Origin: Candidatus Omnitrophota bacterium
GTDB lineage: Bacteria; Omnitrophota; Gorgyraeia; Zapsychrales; JANLHA01
DNA length: 64,000 bases
NCBI GenBank assembly: GCA_029560465.1
Contig: JAKQKX010000092.1
Span: 1,321 to 65,320, forward strand
Reading direction: 5' to 3'
Shown here: positions 7,628 to 41,465 of the stretch, in pieces
How positions within the stretch are numbered: position 1 is the stretch's first letter
How the letters are laid out: each line of letters starts with the position of its first letter
Translations under genes and position numbers: made by a program
The notes under the pieces: model-generated
Seen by the model: the letters and a program-made list of their open reading frames with translations, nothing else
The model's database searches: none
What the model was told of the DNA's origin: nothing

Positions 7628-7825
7628 ATGCCAAATCCTAAGAGACAGCATTCCAAGCAGAGGGGACGCAAGAGGCGGACGCACTGGAAAATCAGTGTGC
7701 CGAGCCTTGGGGAGTGTCCGAATTGCAAGAAGCCGATCATCTCGCACCGGGTTTGCCCTTTCTGCGGTTTTTATAAAGGCAAAACTGTCGTCGAGATTCA
7801 AGTCAAAGAAAAGAAAGCCAAATAA
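7628..7825 (+). CDS. rpmF: 50S ribosomal protein L32
   Basis: MPNPKRQHSKQRGRKRRTHWK... with a CPNC...CPFCG zinc-ribbon. RBS AAGGAG 8 nt upstream. Size 65 aa. Confidence 0.9.
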   Translation: MPNPKRQHSKQRGRKRRTHWKISVPSLGECPNCKKPIISHRVCPFCGFYKGKTVVEIQVKEKKAK

Positions 7826-7949: not shown

Positions 7950-8939
7950 TTGAAAATTGTCGTTGATGCTATGGGGGGGGATTACGCGCCGGCCGCTATC
8001 GTGGAAGGCGTGGTGGACGCGATCAAGGAATTAGATGTCAATGTTGTTCTTATCGGCCTTCAGGACCAGGTTGAGGCCCAACTGCAGAAATATTCTTACC
8101 CGCCGGAACGCCTGAGCGTCATGCACGCGCCGGAAGTGATCAGCATGCATGAAGCCGCGACCATCAGTGTCCGGAAAAAACGGCATTCCTCCATCACGTT
8201 AGGGGTCAAACTTTTAAAAGAGCCTGGATTCGACGCTTTTATCAGCGCCGGGAATACCGGGGCTGTTGTCGCCGCGTCAACGGTTCATCTGGGCATGCTT
8301 CCCGGCGTTGAGCGTCCGGGCATCGGATTGCTTATCCCGCAACTGAACGGGTTTTCTTTTATCATCGACGTGGGCGCGAATTCCGAAGCGAAAGCCAAGC
8401 ATCTTTTGCAATCATCTCTGATGGCGGTCGTGTATGTCCGGGAGGTGTTGGGGGTACAGAATCCGAGGGTTGGGATTTTGAACATTGGGGAAGAGGAATC
8501 AAAGGGCAACGATTTTGTGAAAGAAACACACCGGATGATGGCAGCCCGGTTGGCAAATTTTGTCGGCAATATAGAAGCGAACGATATTTTTTCCGGTCGC
8601 TGTGACTGCATCATTTGTGACGGGTTTACCGGTAATATCGTGATTAAGGTTTCGGAGCACCTCATGGAGTCTGCCGGAACGCTGATCAAGAGGGAAATTA
8701 AGAAAAGCAAAATCGCTCAACTCGGGGCTTTTCTGATGCGGAACCAGTTGAAGCAGGTGCTGCGGCACGCGGATTATTCGGAATACGGGGGAGCCCCGTT
8801 GTTAGGCGTGAACGGTCTGGTGATGATCAGCCACGGGCGATCCAACCCCAAAGCGATCAAGAACGCGATACGGGCCACGTTAAGGGAGATTGAGCATAAT
8901 ATTATTTCGACTATGATAAAGGAGATCAGTTCCAAATGA
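7950..8939 (+). CDS. plsX: Phosphate acyltransferase PlsX
   Basis: The ORF-track frame from 7695 is an N-terminal over-extension that overlaps rpmF. The conserved PlsX N-terminus (LKIVVDAMGGDYAP) begins at an in-frame TTG at 7950, preceded by GGGGGGAGAA (RBS). The C-terminus ends ...ISTMIKEISSK. Confidence 0.88.
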   Translation: MKIVVDAMGGDYAPAAIVEGVVDAIKELDVNVVLIGLQDQVEAQLQKYSYPPERLSVMHAPEVISMHEAATISVRKKRHSSITLGVKLLKEPGFDAFISAGNTGAVVAASTVHLGMLPGVERPGIGLLIPQLNGFSFIIDVGANSEAKAKHLLQSSLMAVVYVREVLGVQNPRVGILNIGEEESKGNDFVKETHRMMAARLANFVGNIEANDIFSGRCDCIICDGFTGNIVIKVSEHLMESAGTLIKREIKKSKIAQLGAFLMRNQLKQVLRHADYSEYGGAPLLGVNGLVMISHGRSNPKAIKNAIRATLREIEHNIISTMIKEISSK

Positions 8940-9913
8940 GCAATGTCGGGATTGTGGCCACCGGGTCTTTTGTGCCGGGGAAGATATTAACTAACGCCGA
9001 GCTGGAACGCATGGTGGACACGTCGGATGAGTGGATTGTAACGCGCACGGGAATTAAAGAACGCCGTATCGCCGAAAAACATGAACGCACCAGTTTCCTG
9101 GCCAGTCAGTCGGCGAAAGATGCGTTGTCGCGGTCGTCGGTTAAAGCGGAAGATGTCGAATTGATTGTCGTGGCCACGACCACCCCTGACAGCCCGTTCC
9201 CGTCGGTCGCCTGTCTGGTGCAGAAGGAAATCGGGGCCAAAAAAGCCGCGGCCTTTGACGTGAGCGCGGCGTGCTCCGGGTTTCTGTTTGCCCTGACAAC
9301 GGCCAAACAATATATACAAACCGGTCTTTATAAAAACGCCCTTGTGATCGCCGCGGAGAAGTTCACGTCTTTCATTGATTGGAACGACCGCAACACCTGC
9401 GTCCTGTTCGGAGACGGGGCCGGAGCGTGCCTGCTTGCGCCGGTCGAAGATGGAAAGGGGATTCTGTCGGACTGCCTGTTTTCCCAGGGGGAGCAGGCGG
9501 AGCTGATGTCGGTTATTGTTCAGGACCGCGAGCCGCTGGATCAGCAGAACACGATGATGCGCATCCCCTATGTGGAAATGCGGGGCCAGGAGCTTTTTAA
9601 AATGGCCGTGACTTCCATGGCGGAAATCGGGACGAGGGCTGTCCAGAAGGCGGGGGTAGCGATTGAAGATATTGATTGTGTCGTCCCGCACCAGGCCAAT
9701 GACCGGATCATCTCTGCTGTCGCCAAGAAGATGGGGATCCCGAAGGAAAAATTTTATATTAACATCCATCGTTACGGGAATATGTCGGCCGCGTCGTTGG
9801 TCGTGGCTCTGCATGAAGCGATCGAAGAGAAAGTCATTAAAGAAGGCAGCACCGCGCTCTTCGCCGCGTTCGGCGCTGGGTTGGTTTCTGCGGCGAATGT
9901 CGTCCAGTTTTGA
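8936..9913 (+). CDS. fabH: 3-oxoacyl-ACP synthase III FabH
   Basis: Active-site Cys context AAFDVSAACSGFLFAL, His (VPHQANDRII) and Asn (NIHRYGNMSAASL). Start overlaps the plsX stop (ATGA). Confidence 0.93.
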   Translation: MSNVGIVATGSFVPGKILTNAELERMVDTSDEWIVTRTGIKERRIAEKHERTSFLASQSAKDALSRSSVKAEDVELIVVATTTPDSPFPSVACLVQKEIGAKKAAAFDVSAACSGFLFALTTAKQYIQTGLYKNALVIAAEKFTSFIDWNDRNTCVLFGDGAGACLLAPVEDGKGILSDCLFSQGEQAELMSVIVQDREPLDQQNTMMRIPYVEMRGQELFKMAVTSMAEIGTRAVQKAGVAIEDIDCVVPHQANDRIISAVAKKMGIPKEKFYINIHRYGNMSAASLVVALHEAIEEKVIKEGSTALFAAFGAGLVSAANVVQF

Positions 9914-10003
9914 TTTTTATGAGAATAACCTTGCCGGTAATGTGTCTTTGATTTCTCTGTGTCCCTGATATGGACGCGGAGATTTTTTTTGAAAGGAACC
10001 GCC

Positions 10004-10915
10004 ATGAGCAAAGTCGCTTTTATTTTCCCGGGCCAGGGGGCCCAATATGTCGGGATGGGGAAGTCGTTGTATGAGCATTCTTCGGAGGCGAAGGCTGTGT
10101 TTGATCAGGCGGATGAGATCCTCGGCAAGAATCTGAAAGATATTATTTTTGAGGGCCCGGTTGAAACCCTGACGTCGACGGCTTACTGTCAACCGGCGAT
10201 CCTTACGACAAGTTTTGCCGCTTATAAAGCTTTGTCCGGCCGCGGAATTCAGCCGGCTTTCCTGGCTGGCTTGAGCTTGGGGGAATTGACGGCGGTGGCT
10301 GTCAGCGGTGCGTTGAGCTTTGAGGACACTCTGAAACTTGTCGAGCGGAGGGCCGCTTTTATGGAGGAGGCGACCAGGCTTAACGATGGCAAAATGGCCG
10401 CGGTTATCGGATTGGATAAGGAAACGATCATCGGGATTTGCCAAAAAGCGGGGGCGGAGGTTGCAAACTTTAACTCTCCTCAACAGATTGTCATCACTGG
10501 CCACGCGGAAAAAGTGGCTGATGCGTGCTGCTTACTGAAAGCTGCCGGCGCGAAAAATGTGGTGCCTTTGGAGGTTTCCGGGGCTTTCCATTCCAGCCTT
10601 ATGCGCGCCGCGGAAGAAAAGTTTAAGCAGGAATTAGAGCGATATGCGTTTAAGGACACGGAAGTTCCCCTTGTGTCGAACGTCAATGCCAAGCCGGCGA
10701 CACAGGCGGAGGTGGTGCGAGGGAACCTTTCAAGGCAGATCACTTCGAGTGTCCAGTGGGTGGATTCAATCAATTTTATGGAGAGGGAGGGTGTCATAAA
10801 TTTTGTTGAAATAGGCCCGGGGAAAGTCTTAAAAGGACTGCTCCGCAAGATTAATGCCCAGTTTCAAGTCATTAATGTTGATAAATTTGAAGATATTGAA
10901 GCTGTTAATTTCTAG
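10004..10915 (+). CDS. fabD: Malonyl-CoA:ACP transacylase FabD
   Basis: GQGAQY start, active-site GLSLGE, and downstream GAFHS. ATG at 10004 with RBS GAAAGGAAC upstream. The GTG-initiated frame from 9959 is probably an over-extension. Confidence 0.92.
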   Translation: MSKVAFIFPGQGAQYVGMGKSLYEHSSEAKAVFDQADEILGKNLKDIIFEGPVETLTSTAYCQPAILTTSFAAYKALSGRGIQPAFLAGLSLGELTAVAVSGALSFEDTLKLVERRAAFMEEATRLNDGKMAAVIGLDKETIIGICQKAGAEVANFNSPQQIVITGHAEKVADACCLLKAAGAKNVVPLEVSGAFHSSLMRAAEEKFKQELERYAFKDTEVPLVSNVNAKPATQAEVVRGNLSRQITSSVQWVDSINFMEREGVINFVEIGPGKVLKGLLRKINAQFQVINVDKFEDIEAVNF

Positions 10916-11067
10916 GATGGGTGACCATCAGAGATCCTTTATATCCAGCTTTTCTCTACAGTATTTTGCCTGAATATATTAAAACTGCGTGTTTTAGCTG
11001 ATTTTTTATGCTCTTTCTATTCCCAATTAACTTTTTCCCAACCTTTTTTAAATAAATTTTACATATT

Positions 11068-11099
11068 TTTGTTTAAAGACCGAAAAGTTTGCTATAATT
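11068..11099 (+). promoter_or_regulatory. Putative sigma70-type promoter with extended -10 (TGCTATAAT) upstream of the FabZ-like/KAS/AAR operon
   Basis: TATAAT at 11094-11099 is preceded by TGC (extended -10). A weak -35-like TTTAAA lies 16 bp upstream. It sits in a 230-bp AT-rich intergenic gap after fabD. Confidence 0.3.
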
Positions 11100-11147
11100 A
11101 ATTATCAAAGTCATTAAGAGAATGAGTGTAAGTAATATAATTATAAT

Positions 11148-11624
11148 ATGTTACCGAAATTCCGGGGCATGCCGATACTCGTTAACAACAATGATTTGCA
11201 GAAAGCCCTCCCGTATGAATACCCTTTTTTATTAATAGACCAGATTGAAGATTATATTCTCGGGAAAAGCATTACAGCGATAAAAAATCTTACAATAAAT
11301 GAATGGCCGTTTGCGGCCGCTGATTCCCAAAATAACTGTTATCCGGAAACACTTTTAATTGAAGCGGCGGCGCAGGCAGCTTTGGCCTTGTATCACCTGA
11401 CGTTCGCTGATGATTGTCAACGGTCTTCACCTGTTATTGGCAGGGTTTATGCGGATTTTTCAGCGCAAGTTAACGCCGGAGACCGCCTTAAGTTTACTGT
11501 GCTGGCGGGGAAGTTCATGCGTCAGGGCGGATATGCGACAATCGGAATTTTTTCCCAGGAAAGCAAGTGCGCGGAGGTTAAACTGGTGTACGGCGTAGTG
11601 CCTCGGAGCCCAACGAGATGGTAA
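11148..11624 (+). CDS. FabZ/FabA-like hotdog-fold protein, an active-site variant lacking the conserved catalytic His
   Basis: Aligns by eye to FabZ (LPYEYPFLLIDQI ~ LPHRFPFLLVDRV; IKNLTINEWPF ~ VKNVSVNEPFF; LLIEAAAQA ~ LILEAMAQA). The canonical GHFP His is replaced (FAAADS). The catalytic Glu equivalent is retained. Confidence 0.7.
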   Translation: MLPKFRGMPILVNNNDLQKALPYEYPFLLIDQIEDYILGKSITAIKNLTINEWPFAAADSQNNCYPETLLIEAAAQAALALYHLTFADDCQRSSPVIGRVYADFSAQVNAGDRLKFTVLAGKFMRQGGYATIGIFSQESKCAEVKLVYGVVPRSPTRW

Positions 11625-12844
11625 AACAAAATCAGCCAAATCAAAGACGGGTTGTCGTGACAGGGCTTGGAGTTGTGTCTTCTGTCGGGATCGGCTGGCA
11701 GGAATTTTGGAAAAATCTCCTTGCCGGCAAAAGCGGGATCAGTGAGGTGACGGCGTTTGATACGTCGAAGCATGATATCCATCTTGCTGGTGAAGTAAAA
11801 GGATTTAATCCCGATGATTTTATCAGCCATAATAAAATGAAAGGCCTGCCTCGAGGATCAAGATTTGCGATCGCCGCCTCCCGTTTGGCATTAAAAGATG
11901 CGTGCTTAAAGGAGCATGATTTGAGGAAGAAATGCGCCGGAGTCGTTTTGGGGACGACCATGGGTGAAATTCAAGTCGTCGAACAAATGGTAAAACATTT
12001 GTATGTCACCCAGAAAGGGTTTAAGGCCATCCGCGCTTTAATGTATCCTTGTAATTTAATCCCCAGCAATGTCGCCCATTATTTCAGGGTGACAGGACAA
12101 AATAGGATTCTTGGGAACGCTTGCGCGGCTGGTAACTTTGCCATTGGATACAGTTTTGATTTAATCAGGCAGGGTAATGCGGACTATATGCTTGCCGGAG
12201 GCGTGGATGTCCTTTCCCGGATAGCGTTTTCGGGGTTTGTTCGCTTATTTGCCATGTCAAAAGATAAATGTCAGCCTTTTGATAAAAACCGGAAAGGGAT
12301 GATGTTGGGGGAAGGGGCGGGTGTCCTTATTCTTGAATCTCTGGAGAATGCGTTGGAACGCGGGGCTAAGATTTACGCGGAGGTATTAGGGTATGGGGTG
12401 TCCTGTGATGCCAATCATATGACACATCCTTTAGTGAGCGGGGTGGAAAAAGCGGTCTGGAAGTCATTGCGAAATTCTAGTGTTGACATTACCGATGTCG
12501 ATTATATAAACGCGCATGGAACCGGGACAACGGAAAATGATAAGGCAGAATGTCAAGCTTTTCATAACGTCTTTGGCGAAAGGTTGCCCCATATCCCAGT
12601 GAGTTCAATAAAGTCCATGCTGGGACATTCAATGGGGGCAGCGTCGGCATTGGAGGCCGTTGTTTGTTGTTTAAGCATCGACCGATCTGAAATTCCACCC
12701 ACAATTAATTATGAAGAAAAAGATCCGGAATGTGAAATTGATTGTGTGCCTAATATAAGTAGAAAACATCCTGTTAAACTTGCTCTTAACAATTCCCAGG
12801 CTTTTGGGGGGAATAATTGTAGTGTAATTTTAGGTAAATATTAA
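11618..12844 (+). CDS. Beta-ketoacyl-ACP synthase (KAS I/II family, FabF/FabB-like)
   Basis: Active-site Cys (NACAAGNFAIGY), His-His pair (NAHGTGT...ND; GHSMGAAS), and a C-terminal ...AFGGNNCSVILGKY. Overlaps the upstream hotdog gene by 7 nt, suggesting translational coupling. Confidence 0.88.
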   Translation: MVKQNQPNQRRVVVTGLGVVSSVGIGWQEFWKNLLAGKSGISEVTAFDTSKHDIHLAGEVKGFNPDDFISHNKMKGLPRGSRFAIAASRLALKDACLKEHDLRKKCAGVVLGTTMGEIQVVEQMVKHLYVTQKGFKAIRALMYPCNLIPSNVAHYFRVTGQNRILGNACAAGNFAIGYSFDLIRQGNADYMLAGGVDVLSRIAFSGFVRLFAMSKDKCQPFDKNRKGMMLGEGAGVLILESLENALERGAKIYAEVLGYGVSCDANHMTHPLVSGVEKAVWKSLRNSSVDITDVDYINAHGTGTTENDKAECQAFHNVFGERLPHIPVSSIKSMLGHSMGAASALEAVVCCLSIDRSEIPPTINYEEKDPECEIDCVPNISRKHPVKLALNNSQAFGGNNCSVILGKY

Positions 12845-12871
12845 TAAATAAAAAAAGAGGTATTGGTAAAA

Positions 12872-12952
12872 GTGAATAAATTTGCTTTTATAGGCCACCC
12901 AATTAATATGCAACATCTGTTAAATTTATTTGATCGTTTCAGGTCTTATTAA
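12872..12952 (+). pseudogene. 26-codon remnant resembling the N-terminus of an AAR-family acyl-ACP reductase (gene fragment)
   Basis: GTG-initiated mini-ORF VNKFAFIGHPINMQHLLNLFDRFRSY* with RBS AAGAGG upstream. It resembles the N-terminus of cyanobacterial AAR (MFGLIGHLTSLEQA...) and of the full-length AAR-like gene at 14406 (IAFMVHPVNVEGL). Confidence 0.4.
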
Positions 12953-12955
12953 AAT

Positions 12956-14395
12956 ATGGCTGAGAGAAAGGAGAAGATGAGAGAGGGCTCGTTTGATGTC
13001 ATTATTATAGGTGCTGGTATCAGTGGTTTAGTGACCGGGTGCTATTTAACTCAAGCGGGCTTGAAAGTCCTTTTGATTGAGCAGAGGAAAGAAGTTGGGG
13101 GTTATTGTCGCTCGTTTGTTTTAAAAAATAATTTAAGGTTTGATGCTTGTGTACATTCTTTAGCTAGTTGTAGAGGGGGAGGTACCCTCGGTGAAATTAT
13201 TAATGATTTAAATTTAAAGAAGTTTTTAATAATTACTGAAACAGCCATTCCCAATATTATTATTTTTGGAGAAAAGAAGATTAGGTTCTACCGGGATTTG
13301 GGGAAGACAATCGATGAATTTATTCGCTCCTTTCCAGGCGAAGAGGCAAACATAATATCCTTTTTCCAATTTGTTTCTAACTCTGATCCGTTACTTTTTG
13401 CTCGATTAAGGAATAAAACATTTTGTGAGTTTTTAGATGGCTTGTTTAAAGATAAGTCACTTAAAAGAATAATCGAGAGAATAATTCTAATTAGTACTGG
13501 GGTTCTTCCGGAAGATTTGTCTGCTTTTATCGGATGCTCAACATTTAAGGAGTATGTGTTAGATTCTGGATATTATCCTATAGGAGGGATGCAATCTTTT
13601 TCTGATGCTTTGGCTAAAATTGTTGTGTCAACTGGCGGGGTAATTAAGTGTGGGGATAAGGTTGAAGAAATTGTCTTGAGAGAAGGGCGCGTTGCTGGAG
13701 TATTGTTGAAGAACGGGGTATTTTTAAAAAGTCCGCGTGTCGTATCAAGTGGTGATGTGTATCAAACTTTTGTTAATTTAATTCGTAACTGTAAGGTAAA
13801 TAAATATTGGAAATCAAAAATTAATTGTATGATCCCATCTATGTCTGCAATATGTGTATATTTAAGTGTGGAAAGAGAAATTGAAAAAGATATAGATTTC
13901 CAATCAACTTTGTATTTTCTTAATAATTCAATTAGTAGGGATAGTGAAGAATCAATTCAGGACCACAAGAGAAGCTCTTTTCTTGTAAGTTGTCCGAGTC
14001 TGCTCGATAAAACAATATCTAATAGTTCGAGGATCCCTGTTCTTGCGTTAACTAACGCATTTTTCAAATCTCGTGACTTTTGGTCTTTTAATAAAAAATT
14101 TTTTGTAACCGAAATAATAAATATATTGAAAAGTGGATATCCAGAATTCTTTAAGACTGTTAGCTGTTGTGGTGTTGCAACTCCGCAGATTTTATATAAT
14201 TGGACATTGAATTATAGAGGGGCGGCTTACGGTTGGGCGGGTATACCTAGTCAACTTGGAGATGCGGATTTAAAAATTAAAAACGATATTAAAGGTTTAT
14301 ATCTGTCTGGTCATTGGATTACTAAAGCACATGGCATAATATCTGCAGCTTATTCTGGGAAAAGAGCGGCAAAGCAAATTTTGAAGGATTGTTAA
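12956..14395 (+). CDS. FAD-dependent oxidoreductase (phytoene-desaturase/amine-oxidase-like fold)
   Basis: N-terminal Rossmann dinucleotide-binding motif DVIIIGAGISGLVTGCYL...LLIEQRKEVGGY. Size 479 aa. Markedly AT-rich relative to flanking housekeeping genes. Confidence 0.75.
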   Translation: MAERKEKMREGSFDVIIIGAGISGLVTGCYLTQAGLKVLLIEQRKEVGGYCRSFVLKNNLRFDACVHSLASCRGGGTLGEIINDLNLKKFLIITETAIPNIIIFGEKKIRFYRDLGKTIDEFIRSFPGEEANIISFFQFVSNSDPLLFARLRNKTFCEFLDGLFKDKSLKRIIERIILISTGVLPEDLSAFIGCSTFKEYVLDSGYYPIGGMQSFSDALAKIVVSTGGVIKCGDKVEEIVLREGRVAGVLLKNGVFLKSPRVVSSGDVYQTFVNLIRNCKVNKYWKSKINCMIPSMSAICVYLSVEREIEKDIDFQSTLYFLNNSISRDSEESIQDHKRSSFLVSCPSLLDKTISNSSRIPVLALTNAFFKSRDFWSFNKKFFVTEIINILKSGYPEFFKTVSCCGVATPQILYNWTLNYRGAAYGWAGIPSQLGDADLKIKNDIKGLYLSGHWITKAHGIISAAYSGKRAAKQILKDC

Positions 14396-14405
14396 TTCTA
14401 AATAT

Positions 14406-15503
14406 ATGGAACATAATGATAAAATTGCTTTTATGGTTCACCCGGTGAATGTCGAGGGTTTGTATTTTATACTTGGGCGTTATTTTCCATTTGTTCAAAG
14501 AATACCGTTGTTTTATTTAAAAGGTTTGATTCAAAAGTTGCCCCCATTTAAATTTTTAAATATTAGAAGGATTAAATCAACCACAGGGAAGACAGTTGAT
14601 GGGATTATTGTTGTTTGCCCATTATTGCCGGAACATTTTGTTTCAATGCCGCAACAGGTCGTGATAAATAAGATTTTGCGTGGGGCTCAAATTTCTCAGG
14701 AATTGGGCGCTAAGATTCTTTCGTTAGGGGGATTTACTTCGATCTTCTCTAATCAGGGGCTGGATATTTGTAATAAATTAGAGATAGCTATTACAACTGG
14801 TAATTCTTATACAGCTAGCTTGGTGGTTGAGGCGATTTTAAAGGCTTCTAATTTTATGAATATTGATTTGTCAAAATCCTCTCTGACAATTTTAGGAGGA
14901 ACGGGGGATATTGGGAAAGCCTGCGCTCAAGTACTAGGTAGAAAGGTGAACTCGATGAATTTGATAGCTAGAGATCAAGATGCATTGGCGGATGTAAGGA
15001 GAGAACTCGAGAATGTTTGTTCTGCAAGAATAAATATTGGGAGACTGGAGGATAAGTATTTGGAAAATGCTGATATAATTATTTGTTCAACAAGTTCCAT
15101 CACAACTCTTATTGATTCACAAGAGTTGAAAAGAGGTGCTTTGCTTTGTGATGTCTCTCTCCCACCCAATGTTGCCAGAAACATAAAGAAAAAAAGAAAA
15201 GATATCTTTGTCTTTGAGGGGGGGTATGCAAAATTGCCGTTTTATAATGAAATTGACAATGTGATATTTAAAAAATATTTTATTCATGAGAATATTTTTG
15301 GATGTTTAGCAGAATCTATAATTTTGGCTTTAGAAGGAAATTTTGTTAATTATTCTTTAGGGAGAGGTAATATTACGGTGGAGAAAATGAACCATATTAA
15401 TTTGTTGGGGAAAAAACATGGCGTTCATTTGGCGCCATTCTTTTGTTCTAATCAAGTTTTTCAAGATGATGACTTGCGTTCTTTTTCGCAAGCGATAAAT
15501 TAA
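14406..15503 (+). CDS. Long-chain acyl-ACP reductase (AAR) family protein
   Basis: Blocks shared with cyanobacterial AAR recalled from memory: SLGGFTSI, ITTGNSYTA, LGGTGDIGKACAQVL (NAD(P)-binding), VFEGGY, FGCLAE, LGRGNITVEKMN..G..HG. Length 365 aa, close to AAR (~340 aa). Confidence 0.7.
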   Translation: MEHNDKIAFMVHPVNVEGLYFILGRYFPFVQRIPLFYLKGLIQKLPPFKFLNIRRIKSTTGKTVDGIIVVCPLLPEHFVSMPQQVVINKILRGAQISQELGAKILSLGGFTSIFSNQGLDICNKLEIAITTGNSYTASLVVEAILKASNFMNIDLSKSSLTILGGTGDIGKACAQVLGRKVNSMNLIARDQDALADVRRELENVCSARINIGRLEDKYLENADIIICSTSSITTLIDSQELKRGALLCDVSLPPNVARNIKKKRKDIFVFEGGYAKLPFYNEIDNVIFKKYFIHENIFGCLAESIILALEGNFVNYSLGRGNITVEKMNHINLLGKKHGVHLAPFFCSNQVFQDDDLRSFSQAIN

Positions 15504-15507
15504 TAAT

Positions 15508-17685
15508 ATGAATATTCCTTGTCTGTTCCCCCTGTTTACTGGACTGCTTGTTTTCTTTGTCGGGGTTATTGCATATACAAAAAGTCATTTTAATCAAATA
15601 AGTAAAAATTTTTTTATTTTTTGCCTTACGATATTCTTGTGGCAATTCTCTTACGGTATAGCGTTTTATTTAAACAGCAAGCCTATCAGTTTCTTATGGC
15701 TTAAAATTGGTTATACAGGTGTTATTTTTACATCTGCTGCTCTTTGCCCATTTGCATTAGAACTATTAAATAATTTTTATAGGAATAAATTGAGTTTCGT
15801 CTTTTATTCCATATCATCTCTTTTCTCTGCGGCCCTTTGGTTCACTAATTATTTTATCTCTGCTGAATATTATGAATACTTTTGGGGGATATATCCCAAG
15901 GCAGCGATAATGCACCCTTTTTTCGTTTTATATATGAACTTAATTTTTTCTGGGATTATTTTCCTTTTGCTCTTTGAATCATTTCGAGAGAAGAATAAGC
16001 AATTGCATACACAAAGACTTAGATATGTTGGAGGTGCATTAAGTATTGGCGCTTTTGCTTCAATAGATTTTGTCGCAAACTATGGATATGAAATATACCC
16101 TTGTGGTTGGATATTTGTAATTTCTTATATTTTAATTATTGCATATACAATAATTAAATACCGATTAATGGATATAAATTTAATCTTAACAAGAACAAGT
16201 ATTTTTATTGTTGTTTATTCCTTCGTCCTTGGAATACCCTTCGCCATAGCTTTCGGCTGGAAAGAACGCCTTATTTATATTATCGGTGATAATTGGTGGC
16301 TTGTGCCGTTGATAAGTTCTACAGTTTTGGCTACCGCAGGGCCGTTTATCTATTTGTATATTCAGAAACGGGCGGAAGCCCGGTTATTCCAGGAGCAAAA
16401 ACGATATCAGGCCACTTTGCGGCAGGCTTCCGCGGGGATGGGGCGGATTAAAGACATTACCCGCCTTGTGAACCTGATTGTCCATATCGTCAGCCGGACC
16501 GTGCGTCTTGAGCATACGTTGGTCTATTTGTTTGACCCTGAAACAAAATTATATCATTTGCGCGCTTCCCGCGCCCGGTCCGCAAGATTTAAAACACAAA
16601 ACACGATCGAAAATATTTCACCGATTGTAAAGTATCTCATCCGTACGCGTAACCCGATAGTTTATGAAGAGATTAAGCAGCAAACCCAGGATTATGGGGA
16701 TATGAATTTGGCCCGTTTGGAATCTGAACTGGTCGCAGTGAATGCCGAGTTGGTCGTCCCGTGTTTTATCGATGATAAGTTGTTGGCGGTTATTGTCCTA
16801 GGTAAGAAAATATCAAATAGTCTATACTCTGAAAGTGATTTGGCGGTTTTCTCGATCCTTGCCAATCAGGCCGCGTTGGCTATGGAGAATGCCATGTTTT
16901 ATGAAGAAATGAAAAATACCCATGCTCAATTAATGAAGGCTGAGAAAATGGCAACGATCGGCACGATGGCTGACGGCCTGTCGCATCAGATTAATAACCG
17001 GCTTCACGCTTTGGGTTTTATAGCGGGAGACGCTCTAGACACGATTAAATTAAAAAAAGATGTGTTCGTGTCGCCGGAAGTAAAAGAGGTGATGATCGAC
17101 CTGGAGCATGCGTTGCATCGAATAGAGGACAATGTCACGCAAGGGGGGGAAATCGTCCGCGGCTTGCTTAAATATACCCGGAAGGGAGAAGAGGGGTTTT
17201 CCGAGCTTGAGTTTGACCAGTTGGTGAATGCCGCCGTTGAGATGACGCAGTTTAAAATTAAGCCTGGGGAAATTCAAATAGTCAAAGAATATGGTAAGGA
17301 TACGCCTAAAATTAACGGAAATTTTACTCAACTTCAGGAAGTGTTTTTTAATCTGATTGATAATGCGTATGACGCGATGATGCAACGGAAGAATGAATTA
17401 AAAGAGAAGGGGTACAGTCCTGTTATAAAAATTTATGCCGAAGGAGATCATAACGGCCGGGTTAATATCCGTTTTGAAGATAACGGAATCGGGATTAAAG
17501 AGGAGGATAAGACAAGGCTTTTTACCCCATTTTTTACGACGAAATTATCAAGCAAAAAGGGCACCGGGTTGGGGCTTTACGTCATTCAAAAACTGATAGA
17601 AGAGAACCATAACGGGAAAGTGGTTTACAACTCGGTTTATAAACAGGGCACAAATGTTTTAATTTCGCTTCATGCTCTCCGGTGA
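15508..17685 (+). CDS. Sensor histidine kinase with multi-pass membrane sensor domain, GAF, HisKA and HATPase domains
   Basis: About 8 N-terminal hydrophobic helices; GAF-like region; H-box (ADGLSHQINNRL); N-box (NLIDNAYDAM); G-boxes (DNGIGI, GTGLGLYV). The start ATG overlaps the AAR-like stop (TAATAATATG). Confidence 0.85.
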   Translation: MNIPCLFPLFTGLLVFFVGVIAYTKSHFNQISKNFFIFCLTIFLWQFSYGIAFYLNSKPISFLWLKIGYTGVIFTSAALCPFALELLNNFYRNKLSFVFYSISSLFSAALWFTNYFISAEYYEYFWGIYPKAAIMHPFFVLYMNLIFSGIIFLLLFESFREKNKQLHTQRLRYVGGALSIGAFASIDFVANYGYEIYPCGWIFVISYILIIAYTIIKYRLMDINLILTRTSIFIVVYSFVLGIPFAIAFGWKERLIYIIGDNWWLVPLISSTVLATAGPFIYLYIQKRAEARLFQEQKRYQATLRQASAGMGRIKDITRLVNLIVHIVSRTVRLEHTLVYLFDPETKLYHLRASRARSARFKTQNTIENISPIVKYLIRTRNPIVYEEIKQQTQDYGDMNLARLESELVAVNAELVVPCFIDDKLLAVIVLGKKISNSLYSESDLAVFSILANQAALAMENAMFYEEMKNTHAQLMKAEKMATIGTMADGLSHQINNRLHALGFIAGDALDTIKLKKDVFVSPEVKEVMIDLEHALHRIEDNVTQGGEIVRGLLKYTRKGEEGFSELEFDQLVNAAVEMTQFKIKPGEIQIVKEYGKDTPKINGNFTQLQEVFFNLIDNAYDAMMQRKNELKEKGYSPVIKIYAEGDHNGRVNIRFEDNGIGIKEEDKTRLFTPFFTTKLSSKKGTGLGLYVIQKLIEENHNGKVVYNSVYKQGTNVLISLHALR

Positions 17686-17733
17686 TGTGTGCTATCATAA
17701 TTTACAGCTTTTATTACGGGAAAGGATGTCGGT

Positions 17734-18096
17734 ATGTCTAAGCTTTTGATTGTCGATGATGAAATAGATATCAGAGAATTCGCTAGGAATTTTTTTAAAA
17801 AAAGAGGGATTGAAGTGTTTACCGCCAGCGGCGGCAGCGACGCACAAGAGATTATCGAGCATGAGAATCCTAACCTGGTGCTTTTAGATGTGCGCATGGA
17901 AGAAATTACTGGCGTGGAATTATTAAGGAATGTCCGGGAAAAGGGCAATAATGTTAAAGTTATTATGGTGAGCGGGGTCGAGGATGAATCGGTTATTGAT
18001 GAAGCGCATAACCTCGGGATTTTGGGCTTTATACACAAGCCGCTTGTTTTAGATGAGTTGGAAAAGATTGTCTTGAAAGAACTCCACCCAGAATAG
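17734..18096 (+). CDS. Single-domain response regulator (CheY-like receiver)
   Basis: LLIVDDE...; phospho-acceptor context LVLLDVRM; a conserved Ser/Thr/Lys pattern (IMVSG...FIHKP). 120 aa. Confidence 0.85.
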   Translation: MSKLLIVDDEIDIREFARNFFKKRGIEVFTASGGSDAQEIIEHENPNLVLLDVRMEEITGVELLRNVREKGNNVKVIMVSGVEDESVIDEAHNLGILGFIHKPLVLDELEKIVLKELHPE

Positions 18097-18138
18097 CCTG
18101 CCGCAGCACAGATAGTGTCTTCACGTTAAAGTTGTCAT

Positions 18139-19362
18139 TTGTACATAATTTACTTAATGAATCGTATGGTTACGGCACAACACAGAAAAATTGATTATAA
18201 GCGGGAACTGGAGACGGCCAGTAAAGGCATGATCATGATCCATGACCCGAAGCTTTTGATTAAGCTGATCGTGCGCATGATTGTGAGTAAGGTCATGATT
18301 AAGCACGCGGGCATGATCCTTTATGAGCCGGACAAAGATGCTTATATCTTGAGTATCTCAAGGGGAGAAACCGGATTCAAGGTCCCGGCTGGGTTTGCGC
18401 GTTTCAGTAAGAATCATTCTATTATTAAATTGTTCACTGAAAAAGAATATCGGGCCCTAACAATCAATAAGAATGCGATTCTTGTCCAGGATTTAAATCG
18501 GCTGATTTGGCAGGAGAGTGTCCTCAATAATAAAAACGGCAATCAGCAGTTATTGCATGACGTTGGGGAACAAATGCAGATGTTCAATGCCGTTGCTGGC
18601 GTCCCGGCCTATTACCAGGATAAGCTGCTCGCTGTTTTGCTGCTTGGGGAAAAGCACGACGGCTTTGGTTTTGATCAACAGGAACTGGATTTTTTTGCTG
18701 CTTTGGCTTCTGATGTGGCCATGGCCATACGGAATGCCCAGCTTTTTATGGATTTGAAGAAAGAGGCGGACAAGAACCATGACCTTTTTATCCGCACGAT
18801 GGTTGTTTTAAGCCAGGCTATTGAAGTTAAGGATAAGTATACGCACGGGCACACCAAGCGGGTGACGGATATCGCTGTTTTGGTTGCCCGGCAGATGGCT
18901 TTAAATGAGTCGGCGGATTTTGAGGAGGAGTTTTATGAAAATTTATACATTGCGAGCATGCTGCATGATATCGGAAAAATCGGGGTCCCCGAAGAAGTTC
19001 TGAATAAAAATGGCACGTTAACTAAAGAAGAATATCAGATTGTCCAGCTTCATCCCCGTCACGGGGTTGAGATATTGTCTCCATTGTCCGAGTTGAAGGA
19101 AAGCCTGGATGGAGTGAAGTATCACCACGAACGATATGACGGGAAGGGGTATCCGGAAGGCTTAAGCGGGGAGGGGATTCCTATTATCGCGGCGATTATT
19201 TCTGTGGCGGATGCTTTTGACGCCATGATCACGGACCGCTCGTACAGGCCCGGGATGACAAAAGCACAGGCAGTTGAAGAAGTAAAAAGGAATGCCGGCA
19301 CCCAGTTTCACCCTGTTCCGGTTAAAGCTTTGGTTGAACTGTATGAGAAAGGCCGGCTGTGA
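18139..19362 (+). CDS. GAF-domain HD-GYP phosphodiesterase (c-di-GMP hydrolase family)
   Basis: HD motif (MLHDIGKIGVP) and HHERYDGKGYPEGL (the GYP signature), downstream of GAF-like regions. Confidence 0.85.
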   Translation: MYIIYLMNRMVTAQHRKIDYKRELETASKGMIMIHDPKLLIKLIVRMIVSKVMIKHAGMILYEPDKDAYILSISRGETGFKVPAGFARFSKNHSIIKLFTEKEYRALTINKNAILVQDLNRLIWQESVLNNKNGNQQLLHDVGEQMQMFNAVAGVPAYYQDKLLAVLLLGEKHDGFGFDQQELDFFAALASDVAMAIRNAQLFMDLKKEADKNHDLFIRTMVVLSQAIEVKDKYTHGHTKRVTDIAVLVARQMALNESADFEEEFYENLYIASMLHDIGKIGVPEEVLNKNGTLTKEEYQIVQLHPRHGVEILSPLSELKESLDGVKYHHERYDGKGYPEGLSGEGIPIIAAIISVADAFDAMITDRSYRPGMTKAQAVEEVKRNAGTQFHPVPVKALVELYEKGRL

Positions 19363-19381: not shown

Positions 19382-21010
19382 TTAACTGCGAGAGTATAAA
19401 GGAAGTTCTACTTTGAATTTTGTTCCCACCCCTATTTGAGTTTCAACACTTATTTTTCCCCCGTGCTCCTGAATGATCCCTTGGGTTATCGCCAGGCCCA
19501 GTCCTGTCCCGGTATCTTTCTTTGAGAAAAATGGGTCAAATATATGTTTTATGTCTTCATGGGCGATCCCGGGGCCGGTGTCTTGGATCGAGATACAAAG
19601 AATATCTGAGGCGGTTGTCTTGACTGCGATGCCTATGATGAGTTCTCCTCCATCGTCAGACATAGCTTCTATGGCGTTGAGGAATAAATTGAGCAAGGCT
19701 TGTTTAAATTGATTCTGATCAATTTTTAATAAATGTTGCTCATTTGGATTATATTGCTTAACGATGGAGATGTTATGTTTTATAAAATCGTTATTTAGAA
19801 AAGCGATCGTGTCTTCAATTAAATATTCTACAACAGTATCCTTAAGATTTAATGGGGCGGGTTTAGCAAAATCCAGTAATTGATTAACCAGATTGTCTAT
19901 TCGCCCGACTTCGTTATTAACGATGCGGGCAAATTTGTCCAGAAATTGCGGATCATTTTTCTTTGAAGGGAGATATTCGGTGAAAGTTTTAACCGCGGTA
20001 AGAGGGTTCTTAATTTCGTGAGCCAGCCCGCTTGCTAGCGTGGCGATGGCTTTGAGCCTTTCTTTGTCAGCGATTTCTTTGCGAAGGAAAAGGTTCTCTT
20101 GGGCGATTTCTTCCGTTGAACCTTTATAAAATGCTTTATCAATAATATGTTGAATCTTGTTTTTGATAGGGATAAAAAAGACAGCAATTATAGTTGCATA
20201 AACTAGGCTTATAATAAACGATTGATATCCGAGAAAATTTTGGAAAAGTTTTTCAATGGTTATTATCAAAGTTAAATAAGCAATTGTTAAGGTCGCAATT
20301 AAAAGAGAATAGATTAAGCCTTTTCGAATTACAATATTAACATCGAGTAATTGATGTTTAAGGATCGCATAGCTGATAATAATACTCCAGAATAAAAAGA
20401 ATACAGCACCAAAAGGATAGATATTTACATGATATTTAGGCAGGAAGTCAATGCTTGCAAAAAAGGAGATGAAATAAGCTAAAAAGATGTATTTAATTTG
20501 TTTTAGTTGGTTAGCAGGGAGTAATTTTAACTTTATAGTTGAAAAAAGTTGAAGTAAGCTTCGAGAAATAATTGACATAAAAATGATAATAACATAAATA
20601 TAAAATGGCCCGACTCTTGAATAATAACCAAAATAGTATTTGTATAAACCTGTGTGAAAATATTTTGTGAAAAAGCTAAAAGGTAAATATAACAAAACAA
20701 CATAATATAAAGAAAGAGCAAATTTCTTTTCTTTTTTTTTGTAACAAAGGACGGAAGTAAAATGATAATAAGTTACACTGATAAAAAGTACTGCCGAACA
20801 TCCAATCCATAATAAAATATTAGCCAGTTTTTCATTATCTGTAGAATAACAAATCGAATAACAAAATAACCATAAAAAAACAGCCAATGATGATAAAAAG
20901 AACACCCTGTTGATTTCAGCCTTTATGTTATTAAGGAGTACTAATAAACCTAAGGAAATAGAAACGATACTAGTTGTAAGTGGAAGAATGGAATAAATTG
21001 TAATATGCAT
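19382..21010 (-). CDS. Sensor histidine kinase with multi-pass membrane sensor domain (paralog of the kinase at 15508)
   Basis: AT-rich N-terminal polytopic region; H-box (LASGLAHEIKNPL); N-box (LFLNAIEAM); G-boxes (DTGPGI, GTGLGL). The membrane domain resembles that of the kinase at 15508. Confidence 0.85.
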   Translation of the reverse strand: MHITIYSILPLTTSIVSISLGLLVLLNNIKAEINRVFFLSSLAVFLWLFCYSICYSTDNEKLANILLWIGCSAVLFISVTYYHFTSVLCYKKKEKKFALSLYYVVLLYLPFSFFTKYFHTGLYKYYFGYYSRVGPFYIYVIIIFMSIISRSLLQLFSTIKLKLLPANQLKQIKYIFLAYFISFFASIDFLPKYHVNIYPFGAVFFLFWSIIISYAILKHQLLDVNIVIRKGLIYSLLIATLTIAYLTLIITIEKLFQNFLGYQSFIISLVYATIIAVFFIPIKNKIQHIIDKAFYKGSTEEIAQENLFLRKEIADKERLKAIATLASGLAHEIKNPLTAVKTFTEYLPSKKNDPQFLDKFARIVNNEVGRIDNLVNQLLDFAKPAPLNLKDTVVEYLIEDTIAFLNNDFIKHNISIVKQYNPNEQHLLKIDQNQFKQALLNLFLNAIEAMSDDGGELIIGIAVKTTASDILCISIQDTGPGIAHEDIKHIFDPFFSKKDTGTGLGLAITQGIIQEHGGKISVETQIGVGTKFKVELPLYSRS

Positions 21011-21035: not shown

Positions 21036-21395
21036 TTACTTCATCTTTTTCTTAACGACATCCAATATTTCTTCAGCCTTAAAAGGTTTTACGATATACC
21101 CCGACGCCCCAAGCCGCACGGCTTCCGTTGCTGTTTCAACGGATTTATATCCCGTAACAATAATAACGGGTAATTCTGGAGATACATTTTTGATTTTTTG
21201 AAGCACTTCAAGCCCGTTATATCCCGGCATTTTAATGTCGAGCAGCACGAGCCCTATGTCCTGATCGTTTTCAACGCAGTTGAGCCCTTGTCCCGCGTCT
21301 TCCGTTATAATTAGATTATAATAATCACTTAAGATTAGTTTGAGCGATTCTCTTACGCCTTCCACATCGTCAATAATTAACACTTTTTTGGACAT
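21036..21395 (-). CDS. Single-domain response regulator (CheY-like receiver)
   Basis: VLIIDDVE...; LVLLDIKMPG; IIVTGY...YIVKPF. 119 aa. Confidence 0.85.
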   Translation of the reverse strand: MSKKVLIIDDVEGVRESLKLILSDYYNLIITEDAGQGLNCVENDQDIGLVLLDIKMPGYNGLEVLQKIKNVSPELPVIIVTGYKSVETATEAVRLGASGYIVKPFKAEEILDVVKKKMK

Positions 21396-21429: not shown

Positions 21430-21981
21430 TTAGAGTTCAACAGGGGTAATAACGGATATAAGTTTGGCGACTCTGGATCCCGCGTTCTCTATATAGTGTT
21501 TTTGTGAGGAATTAAAATACAATGTGTCATTGGCCTTGAGGGCGTGGGCGCGTTCTCCGATATGCACGCTGACAAGCCCTTCCAGCACAAAAATAAATTT
21601 TTCTGATCCCGGTTGATTTTGCTCTATGGAGGTTTTCCCCCCAACATCAATGCGCAAAACAACCGGGAGCATTTTTTTGTTCACGATATTCCCGGTTAAT
21701 ATTTCGGAGGAAGCTTTTTCATTGTATGAAAAAGTTTCCGGTGCGTCTCCTAATTCAACTTTTTCTAGGGAATCGTTCGTCGTATGAACCCCTTTATATA
21801 AATCTATCAGTTCAACGCCAAGCGCTTGGGCGATTCGTATGTGTGATTCCAGAGTGCCTGTCATTTTCAAGTGTTCAATGCGGCTGAGGGTGGCGATTTG
21901 TATGCCGCTTTTTTCGGCAAGGTCTGTTAATTTCATGTTTTTAGCTTTTCTCAAGTCTCTAATTTTTTTCCCTAATTCCAT
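21430..21981 (-). CDS. XRE-family HTH transcriptional regulator with C-terminal cupin domain
   Basis: N-terminal HTH (LRKAKNMKLTDLAEKSGIQIATLSRIE). C-terminal cupin-like beta-barrel region (FIFVLEG...HIGE...YFNS). Confidence 0.8.
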   Translation of the reverse strand: MELGKKIRDLRKAKNMKLTDLAEKSGIQIATLSRIEHLKMTGTLESHIRIAQALGVELIDLYKGVHTTNDSLEKVELGDAPETFSYNEKASSEILTGNIVNKKMLPVVLRIDVGGKTSIEQNQPGSEKFIFVLEGLVSVHIGERAHALKANDTLYFNSSQKHYIENAGSRVAKLISVITPVEL

Positions 21982-41376: not shown

Positions 41377-41465
41377 GGAGAGGTGGCAGAGCGGTTGAAT
41401 GCGGCGGTCTTGAAAACCGTTGTGGGTAACTCCCACCCAGAGTTCGAATCTCTGCCTCTCCGCCA
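41377..41465 (+). tRNA. tRNA-Ser (anticodon UGA), class II with long variable arm, CCA encoded
   Basis: GGAGAGG acceptor stem; D-arm GCAGAGCGGTTGAA; anticodon loop CTTGAAA (anticodon TGA); 15-nt variable arm; T-arm CAGAGTTCGAATCTCTG; ...CCTCTCCGCCA 3' end. Confidence 0.85.

Follow-up and report, generated by a model that had tools for sequence, protein, structure and literature searches.

A lipid-enzyme and sensor-kinase module of Omnitrophota with a hypervariable cassette: a probable new lipid-based signalling system

We describe a seven-gene operon in a 64-kb stretch (64,000 nucleotides) of contig JAKQKX010000092.1 from a Candidatus Omnitrophota bacterium (assembly GCA_029560465.1); this whole stretch is called the window, and coordinates are positions in it. 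The operon joins genes for building and modifying an acyl chain to genes for a sensor kinase, a receiver and a candidate cyclic di-GMP (c-di-GMP) phosphodiesterase. Its last biosynthetic genes vary together with the sensor part of the kinase as one cassette, a feature that the initial annotation of this DNA had missed. Judged from sequence, the operon appears to be one allele of an Omnitrophota-wide module, and the locus is probably a new lipid-based signalling system. We think it has slightly better than an even chance of being one in which the co-inherited seven-transmembrane (7TM) sensor takes the pathway product as its ligand and so controls c-di-GMP; this product would probably be a fatty or unsaturated aldehyde. 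The gene content, order and strand of the region from rpmF to the HD-GYP gene had been correctly described, and all seven operon genes are co-directional:

11148-11624, forward strand: FabZ-like hotdog protein (start possibly at 11169)
11618-12844, forward strand: FabF-like ketoacyl-ACP synthase (KAS), Cys-His-His triad present
12956-14395, forward strand: FAD-dependent amine-oxidase-fold flavoprotein of CrtI/CrtD type (Pfam Amino_oxidase)
14406-15503, forward strand: AAR/PigE-N-like thioester reductase (by matches to solved structures and motifs)
15508-17685, forward strand: HisKA_7TM-GAF-HATPase sensor kinase (Pfam)
17734-18096, forward strand: stand-alone receiver (phospho-acceptor pocket residues present)
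18139-19362, forward strand: GAF-HD-GYP c-di-GMP phosphodiesterase candidate (start probably the ATG at 18157)

A hypervariable cassette of tailoring enzyme, reductase and sensor domain

The homologues of the reductase were sorted into groups by genomic context, and a module locus was defined as a non-redundant locus in which a gene resembling acyl-ACP reductase (AAR) has a KAS neighbour; loci are designated by L and a number. L006 lies on a 3.36-Mb contig and shares its flanks with the window: nucleotide identity between the two is 0.65-0.81 to either side and about 0.5 over about 11.5-16.15 kb. The same division is seen in the proteins. FabH (84% identity), the kinase core (86%), the receiver (82%), the HD-GYP region (85%), the linker (76%) and the GAF domain (78%) are conserved, while the hotdog protein (53%), the KAS (55%), the reductase (40%) and the 7TM domain (31%) have been replaced, and L006 has a methyltransferase in place of the window flavoprotein. 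Replacement of this kind recurs in other pairs of loci. Between L126 and L131 FabH is 87% identical, the kinase 82% and HD-GYP 88%, as against 33% for the replaced reductase and 36% for the 7TM domain, and between L087 and L139 the corresponding values are 75% (kinase) and 78% (HD-GYP) as against 34% and 37%. L004 and L106 share 93% identity in an upstream KAS and 82% in both the kinase and the REC-HD-GYP protein, with replaced core genes at 50-58% and the 7TM domain at 32%; L003 and L090 share 72% in the reductase and 77% in the kinase, with the kinase-adjacent flavoprotein at 34% and the 7TM domain at 35%. The tailoring gene content differs in four of the five replaced pairs, and in other cassettes the slot of the flavoprotein is occupied by a methyltransferase, a nitroreductase or an extra short-chain dehydrogenase/reductase, or is empty. 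The right-hand boundary falls at about kinase residue 216, which corresponds to the end of the Pfam HisKA_7TM match.

Among pairs of loci with kinase cores at least 70% identical, 7TM identity is bimodal, at either 26-38% or 54-90%. In partial Mantel tests on 24 loci, reductase and 7TM identities are correlated when the kinase is controlled for (r=0.63, p=0.0002), and 7TM and kinase identities are not when the reductase is controlled for (r=-0.01, p=0.51). 7TM identity thus tracks reductase identity and not kinase identity.

The composition of the DNA breaks in the same place. The fall in GC that had been reported for this region is real, 0.32-0.36 per kilobase over 13-16 kb compared with 0.50-0.54 over 8-11 kb, and is sharper than had been described, running from just after the KAS gene (about 12953) to a point inside the kinase gene (about 16152). 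GC at third codon positions (GC3) is 0.29 in the flavoprotein gene, 0.31 in the reductase gene and 0.27 in the 7TM part; it rises to 0.48 in the remainder of that kinase gene and is 0.58-0.68 in the fab genes. The 7TM-coding part is lower in GC than the rest of the kinase gene in all 24 loci compared, as is partly expected from the codon content of transmembrane segments.

Comparison with L001 shows the converse pattern, a shared cassette within diverged surroundings. Synonymous divergence (dS) between the window and L001 is 0.26 in the flavoprotein gene, 0.24 in the reductase gene and 0.34 in the 7TM part, and 1.51 in the hotdog gene, 1.14 in the KAS gene, 1.30 in the rest of the kinase gene, 1.19 in the receiver gene and 1.23 in the HD-GYP gene; dN/dS is 0.15-0.18 in the cassette and 0.02-0.04 in the signalling genes. 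L122 and L124 repeat this, with cassette dS of 0.11-0.26, flanks at 1.1 or saturated, and a break once more at the 7TM boundary. The cassette of L006 is near those of L105, L102 and L108 (reductase 48-54%, 7TM 51-56%), and its flanks are closer to the window.

Remnants of other alleles lie at the left-hand edges. In L006 a 40-codon open reading frame (ORF) straight after the hotdog gene matches the first 34 residues of a window-type KAS and then meets a stop, and it is followed by a methyltransferase-KAS-reductase cassette. The window has a remnant of a different gene, which resembles the N-termini of AAR-like proteins (58% identity over 24 residues to L010 and 85% over 13 residues to L100, consensus NKFAFIxHP) and is also present in L001. 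Since this scar is the N-terminus of another reductase allele, the window cassette spans about 12953 to about 16152:

12872-12952, forward strand: left scar, a 26-codon vestigial 5' end of another AAR-like allele, VNKFAFIGHPINMQHLLNLFDRFRSY and then a stop, identified by its N-terminus matches
12953-16152, forward strand: hypervariable AT-rich cassette of flavoprotein gene, reductase gene and 7TM-coding part of the kinase gene, delimited by breaks in identity, dS and GC3

The truncated KAS and reductase 5' ends mark recombination breakpoints, and what has been horizontally exchanged is only the inner cassette of flavoprotein, reductase and 7TM sensor.

The module, its components and its surroundings

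There are 47 non-redundant module loci, almost all from Omnitrophota. A tblastn search with the window 7TM domain gave a match directly downstream in 23 of the 29 evaluable loci, and the remaining six likewise have a kinase there or close by. Of 14 loci evaluable for an HD-GYP gene, 13 have one within 9 kb, and in some lineages, for example L004 and L106, it has the RpfG architecture (REC plus HD-GYP). As a control, a 7TM kinase is nearby in only 3 of 90 evaluable loci whose AAR-like gene has no KAS neighbour. The link between lipid genes, kinase, receiver and HD-GYP gene has been kept across dozens of distant loci, and the wiring to c-di-GMP that had been suggested for the window is therefore not a chance adjacency. 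We found no description of such a module in the literature on Omnitrophota HD-GYP proteins and quorum sensing, on HisKA_7TM, or on AAR homologues with kinases.

The larger modules add a second ketosynthase of the chain-length-factor (CLF) type, a FabG-type ketoreductase, an acyl carrier protein (ACP) and a FabZ/ApeI-like dehydratase with its catalytic His. The CLF-like ketosynthase is catalytically dead, with Cys replaced by Phe and both His residues lost. From this gene content the fuller module appears to be a minimal type II fatty acid synthase (FAS) or polyketide synthase (PKS) that lacks an enoyl reductase. The window lineage (L001, L006, L087, L126, L131) has the module directly after plsX-fabH-fabD, down to about 60% protein identity, and is a reduced form in which the ketoreductase, the ACP, the CLF-like ketosynthase (except in L139) and the dehydratase His have been lost. 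In other Omnitrophota lineages (L106, L113, L121 and L143) the module is directly upstream of fabG-acpP-fabF. A 12-kb contig labelled as a Rhodocyclaceae metagenome-assembled genome (L008, VIKE01000106.1) carries a complete Omnitrophota-type module, with CLF-like ketosynthase, ketoreductase, ACP, dehydratase, KAS, two flavoprotein genes, reductase and 7TM kinase; it is either a mis-binned contig or a transfer outside Omnitrophota.

The hotdog gene of the window overlaps the KAS gene by 7 nt, as had been noted, and the loss of the catalytic His is also borne out: in alignments with FabZ structures from the PDB, Ala stands at the position of E. coli FabZ H54, and Glu68 is kept. The protein scores 37.7 bits with Pfam FabA and 65-67 bits with the NCBIfam fabZ models, under their cut-offs of 113 and 155, so that by residues and by score it falls outside FabZ. 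The His is lost in nine of nine window-lineage hotdogs, where the residue is A, R, A, D, Q, P, Q, Q and Q, and it is kept in 14 hotdogs of larger modules. The KAS has its catalytic residues intact (Cys169, His300, Lys332, His337), and is on this evidence predicted to be an active FabF-like ketoacyl-ACP synthase. The position of these two genes directly behind fabD, and the KAS score of 405.8 bits against the PRK07314 subfamily cut-off of 387, might suggest that they are simply fabZ and fabF of housekeeping function that have become separated from fabG and acpP. We find this scarcely credible. The former active-site loop of the His-less hotdog varies freely among relatives, and the KAS, at 420.4 bits, is below the cut-off of the TIGR03150 fabF equivalog (493.75). 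In related genomes that contain a module KAS as well as a canonical fabF beside acpP (L106, L113, L121), the window KAS has only 35-38% identity to the latter, as compared with 49-60% to module KAS genes, and it has no acpP neighbour, there being no acpP in the window.

The flavoprotein matches Pfam Amino_oxidase at 74 bits, and only the Amino_oxidase and NAD_binding_8 domains pass their thresholds. With models of the CrtD/CrtI family it reaches about 84-94 bits against cut-offs of 238-587 (TIGR02734, 83.4 against 238; CrtD, 93.9 against 550), which places it outside the phytoene desaturase family. The best solved structure is 4rep, a gamma-carotene desaturase (1.4e-13). We take it to be a distant relative of CrtI, CrtD and the carotenoid isomerases and, from its replacement in other loci, probably the variable tailoring enzyme of the cassette.

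The reductase, labelled 'hypothetical protein' in GenBank, is equally close to a solved AAR (6jzq) and to the N-terminal domain of PigE (4ppm), with E about 1e-29. The strong similarity to AAR in the initial annotation therefore holds at the level of structures, but PigE-N is as strong a match and the protein reaches only 149.9 bits with the AAR equivalog TIGR04058 (curated cut-off 449.7). The PigE model, at 170.9 bits, scores slightly above it, the kind of result that had been named as counting against an AAR assignment; here too the cut-off (850) is not passed, and the match covers only profile positions 45-354 of 837. No class-III aminotransferase, the partner domain in PigE, is fused to the reductase or present in the operon. 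The catalytic Cys is residue 300, where FGCLAES aligns with FACFAEA of 6jzq (Cys294 of the Synechococcus elongatus AAR), and the nucleotide-binding motif, of GATGDIG type and GGTGDIG in the window, is at residues 164-170. C300, G164, G167, I169 and G170 are invariant in both family alignments (A1 and A2), and D168 is invariant in A2. Reduction of acyl thioesters to aldehydes is the reaction of both characterised members of the family, AAR and PigE-N (for PigE, PMC8341465). The protein would thus be an NAD(P)H-dependent thioester reductase of the AAR/PigE-N kind and not an AAR equivalog. A reduced acyl product, as had been proposed, agrees with the Cys, the motif and the family chemistry, but nothing points to an alkane pathway: tblastn with a query for aldehyde-deformylating oxygenase (ADO), the partner of cyanobacterial AAR, gave no match at E<=10 in the window, where none had been seen before, or in any Omnitrophota-type locus. 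The query did recover ADO-like genes in other loci, one of them confirmed by Pfam.

Homologues of the reductase also occur in other contexts. In soil and rhizosphere metagenomes (L142, L144, L146, L153, L156, L162, L163, L166) a distant ADO-like gene, 21-23% identical to cyanobacterial ADO and matching Pfam Ald_deCOase (PF11266) at 52 bits against a cut-off of 28, is directly upstream of the AAR-like gene. The neighbours of the pair at L153:9162-10930 are genes for a 4HBT thioesterase, a GNAT protein, DUF3419 and two fatty-acid desaturases; this may be a non-cyanobacterial hydrocarbon pathway of ADO/AAR type. In Firmicutes-type homologues the AAR-like gene follows genes for a class-III aminotransferase and an SRPBCC protein (polyketide cyclase/lipid transport), and has no lipid-synthase or kinase neighbours. 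L079:8295-11089 from Tumebacillus avium is an example, and other Firmicutes and Armatimonadota loci (L011-L086) probably share this order, which suggests a PigE split into separate proteins and the formation of fatty amines.

The kinase matches HisKA_7TM (PF16927) over residues 9-223 with 42.9 bits, above the gathering score of 28.6. Seven transmembrane helices lie in residues 1-216, of which 1-215 are hypervariable, and two more at 232-283; the conserved distal portion has a GAF domain (316-461), the H-box GLSHQINNRL and an HATPase domain. The AF2 model of the 7TM domain (pLDDT 87.6) is nearly all helix, with seven helices, one beta-hairpin at residues 117-132 and very short exposed loops. 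A word-indexed search of 5.8 billion proteins returned 21 matches to the window 7TM allele, the best at 43% identity. The receiver pocket is complete (D9, D10, D52, S80, K102), as are the HD-GYP motifs HDIGK and HHERYDGKGYP, so that apart from the hotdog His the functional motifs are intact in all parts. After the overlap of hotdog and KAS genes the gaps in the operon are, in order, 111, 10, 4, 48 and 42 nt. The stop of the reductase gene had been thought to overlap the start of the kinase gene, but the TAA at 15501-15503 and the ATG at 15508 are four bases apart.

Downstream of the operon, and convergent with it, is a group of genes that is possibly associated:

19382-21010, reverse strand: second HisKA_7TM kinase
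21036-21395, reverse strand: receiver
21430-21981, reverse strand: HTH-cupin regulator

The 7TM part of the second kinase is only 29% identical to that of the operon, and no kilobase of the window is richer in AT than the DNA that encodes it (GC 0.30 at 20-21 kb); L006 has the receiver and the regulator without the second kinase. Many module loci have extra HisKA_7TM kinases, with three or four each in some (L116, L122, L124, L129, L143), and these could be additional receptors. We rejected the idea that the second kinase of the window is an orphan receptor for another cassette type, as its 7TM part does not exceed 38% identity to any cognate 7TM domain. Further c-di-GMP genes of the window are at 37-2640 and 53806-55245: one encodes a PAS-GGDEF diguanylate cyclase (867 residues), and the other is an ORF with an HD-GYP region 37% identical to that of the operon, as found by tblastn only. 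Two very large ORFs are on the forward strand, 25378-33570 (2730 residues) and 57740-63388 (1882 residues). An anti-phage defence system was considered and rejected, the PADLOC matches being generic domains only.

Upstream, recG, rsmD, coaD and yceD precede rpmF, and the order rpmF-plsX-fabH-fabD is common to L001, L006, L087, L126 and L131:

7628-7825, forward strand: rpmF (L32 ORF)
about 7950-8939, forward strand: plsX (NCBIfam match above cut-off)
8936-9913, forward strand: fabH (NCBIfam match above cut-off)
9959-10915, forward strand: fabD (NCBIfam match above cut-off)
10916-11147, forward strand: AT-rich gap of 232 nt ahead of the hotdog gene, containing a promoter-like site

The mechanically called plsX ORF (GTG at 7695, 414 residues) is over-extended and overlaps rpmF; the HMM match and the relatives put the start near 7950. 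Between the window and L001 the dS of fabH is only 0.20, with 0.5-1.0 in its neighbours plsX and fabD, which is due either to another tract of recent recombination or to a strong constraint on codon usage (GC3 0.68). The usual continuation of this block is missing, as had been stated: tblastn found no fabG, acpP or second KAS anywhere in the window. The gap had also been said to contain a promoter. A site matching the consensus is present at 11114-11141 (TTAAGA-16-TATAAT), but the region has 44 such sites against 34 expected by chance, and promoter and terminator counts overall are at background level, so that the operon structure rests on spacing. An upstream riboswitch or other RNA element was rejected, as the Rfam scan gave nothing at E<=1 in 10800-13000; its sole match is a tRNA at 41377-41462.

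The product as proposed ligand, and other explanations

The mechanism we propose is as follows. The KAS would elongate acyl-ACP supplied by the neighbouring type II FAS genes, with the His-less hotdog probably acting as a non-catalytic acyl-ACP-binding or gating partner. The reductase would then use NAD(P)H and an acyl-Cys intermediate to free the chain in aldehyde form, and the CrtI-like flavoprotein would tailor it, most likely by desaturation. That the releasing enzyme is of the AAR/PigE-N family is what makes an aldehyde probable. The lack of an enoyl reductase in the fuller modules suggests enal or polyenal products, and CrtI-like flavoproteins may, we infer, add or shift double bonds. 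The hydrophobic product would bind the 7TM domain of the kinase inside the membrane, the kinase would alter the phosphorylation of the stand-alone receiver, and the receiver would modulate the GAF-HD-GYP phosphodiesterase and hence the level of c-di-GMP. As the last biosynthetic genes and the 7TM sensor are inherited and exchanged as one hypervariable cassette, strains would carry different matched types of signal and receptor, as in the agr and comQXP pherotype loci. That the product is the 7TM ligand best explains the conserved linkage, the joint replacement of enzymes and sensor, and the change of tailoring enzyme that accompanies most replacements.

The initial annotation had taken the whole operon for a horizontally acquired module that diverts acyl-ACP into a reduced long-chain product. 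An explanation along these lines would be a one-off acquisition that yields a bulk product, a fatty aldehyde, alcohol or alkane, with the signalling genes merely co-located. The intact reductase active site, the AT-rich composition and the lack of fabG and acpP in the window would be consistent with such a one-off acquisition. However, the same module is at the same place in the five related loci of the window lineage and is widespread in the phylum, exchange is limited to the inner cassette, and no ADO-like gene accompanies it; the kinase is at or near its downstream position in 29 of 29 loci, and the HD-GYP gene is almost as constant. Even the gene order beside fabG and acpP, which had been named in advance as speaking against acquisition, occurs in four loci of other Omnitrophota lineages. 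We regard this explanation as largely refuted and very improbable. Another is that diversifying selection, from phage, predators or host contact, acts on the surface-exposed 7TM domain alone, and that the biosynthetic genes hitch-hike and their product is not a ligand. In favour of this, the hypervariable zone has its centre at the start of the kinase gene, co-variation with the 7TM domain is seen in whichever gene adjoins the kinase (in the window lineage the reductase, but in L003, L090 and L101 the flavoprotein), and left-hand breakpoints differ among loci. Against this, the loops available for such selection are very short, every exchanged tract includes at least one product-determining gene, no tract confined to the 7TM region was seen, and the phylum-wide linkage of the module to this kinase type is left unexplained. 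Pure hitch-hiking is in our view a weaker explanation than the product as ligand, and quite improbable.

It is also conceivable, if rather unlikely, that the product goes into the membrane of the producing cell, for example as an aldehyde-derived or ether-type lipid, and that the 7TM kinase monitors this lipid or the bilayer and adjusts c-di-GMP in membrane-lipid homeostasis, with no signalling between cells. The module repeatedly adjoins housekeeping FAS II genes, either after plsX-fabH-fabD or before fabG-acpP-fabF, a sensor within the membrane suits lipid sensing, and ligand and receptor would co-vary here too. Yet enzymes for joining the product to glycerol or a head group are missing from all 47 module loci, and the output is c-di-GMP and not the transcription of lipid genes. 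Discrete, exchanged allele classes with different tailoring enzymes are moreover, from what is generally known of agr and comQXP, typical of recognition systems and not of sensors for homeostasis.

Several observations nevertheless weigh against the product as ligand. In L003 and L090 the reductase, 4 kb from the kinase, does not co-vary with the 7TM domain (72% against 35% identity), and the adjacent flavoprotein does; co-variation of reductase and 7TM domain could therefore come from physical linkage alone. The raw fall in GC over the 7TM part is only partly informative, because DNA coding for transmembrane segments is AT-rich anyway, and GC3 and dS are the better evidence. The window version has no ACP, ketoreductase or CLF-like partner of its own and only a dead dehydratase; components for export or uptake are missing; and the GAF-HD-GYP protein of the window has no receiver domain, the receiver being a separate protein. 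A Foldseek search of the 7TM model against the PDB found nothing at E<=1e-3, and the faint seven-helix likeness to GPCRs (TM-scores 0.3-0.5) we treat as uninformative. The whole case is one of comparative genomics of metagenome assemblies.

Comparison with known signalling systems

Hydrophobic signals perceived by multi-transmembrane kinases are well established: RpfC senses DSF and has its output through the HD-GYP protein RpfG, and CqsS senses CAI-1. The locus resembles the DSF/Rpf system of Xanthomonas (RpfF, RpfC, RpfG) in its presumed FAS-derived molecule, its multi-transmembrane kinase input and its HD-GYP output with both HD and GYP motifs intact. It differs in that the operon has no RpfF crotonase domain, with KAS, hotdog and AAR-like reductase in its stead, in that the sensor is HisKA_7TM and not the RpfC input domain, and in that the receiver and the GAF-carrying HD-GYP of the window are separate proteins. 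We know of no cassette polymorphism of this kind in Rpf. CqsA-CqsS, which acts through CAI-1, and PhcB-PhcS, which acts through 3-OH-PAME, are similar in having a hydrophobic signal derived from an acyl thioester and a membrane kinase gene beside the synthase gene, and one cassette type, that of L006, has a methyltransferase at the place of the window flavoprotein; but synthases and receptors come from unrelated families, and the output is another.

The organisation of the variation is closest to that of agr (agrBDCA) in staphylococci and comQXP in Bacillus, which are known for their polymorphic pherotypes. As there, a hypervariable segment covers signal-producing genes and an N-terminal multi-transmembrane sensor, the kinase core and the regulator are conserved, and discrete allele classes are exchanged horizontally. 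The signals of agr and comQXP are ribosomal peptides, whereas here the variable genes are predicted to encode lipid-tailoring and lipid-releasing enzymes; the output is c-di-GMP and not a DNA-binding regulator, and the host belongs to an uncultivated phylum.

The enzymes have their own counterparts. The reductase shares its fold family, catalytic Cys and nucleotide-binding motif with AAR (6jzq) and PigE-N (4ppm), so that conversion of acyl thioester to aldehyde would be expected, but it is far under both cut-offs, has neither an ADO partner nor a fused or adjacent aminotransferase, and is found in another genomic context. The larger modules are like the aryl polyene (Ape) and flexirubin clusters in having a ketosynthase, a dead CLF-like ketosynthase, a FabG-type ketoreductase, an ACP and a FabZ/ApeI-like dehydratase but no enoyl reductase. 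In the module, unlike those clusters, release is predicted to be reductive, by the AAR-like enzyme, and there are no genes for an aryl starter, lipid attachment or export; the window version keeps only the ketosynthase and the dead dehydratase. Taken by these comparisons, the locus is not a member of AAR/ADO, PigE, FabZ, housekeeping FabF, CrtI or Rpf. Its novelty is that a known type of circuit, a two-component system with co-diversifying synthase and receptor, is built from component families not previously used in this way.

A bolder proposal, which we put forward tentatively and at somewhat less than an even chance, is that these loci represent a new class of cell-to-cell signalling, in which fatty or polyenoic aldehydes or their derivatives, made by a minimal type II FAS/PKS, would be autoinducers for HisKA_7TM kinases and would form lipid 'pherotypes' that move between strains. 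The HisKA_7TM sensor domain is widespread and to our knowledge has no known ligand; this would be its first ligand class. It would also be the first case of pherotype-style co-diversification of synthase and receptor with a signal derived from lipid and not from peptide. To the three settings in which AAR-family thioester reductases occur (alkane synthesis, prodigiosin and the split PigE-like pair) it would add a fourth. The matched natural cassettes would then be a ready panel of orthogonal signal/receptor pairs, and a circuit from signal to c-di-GMP with swappable specificity is a concrete hypothesis that is open to heterologous expression. Omnitrophota are abundant uncultivated nanobacteria. 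If our interpretation is right, this partly host-dependent phylum would have its first proposed system for communication or kin discrimination.

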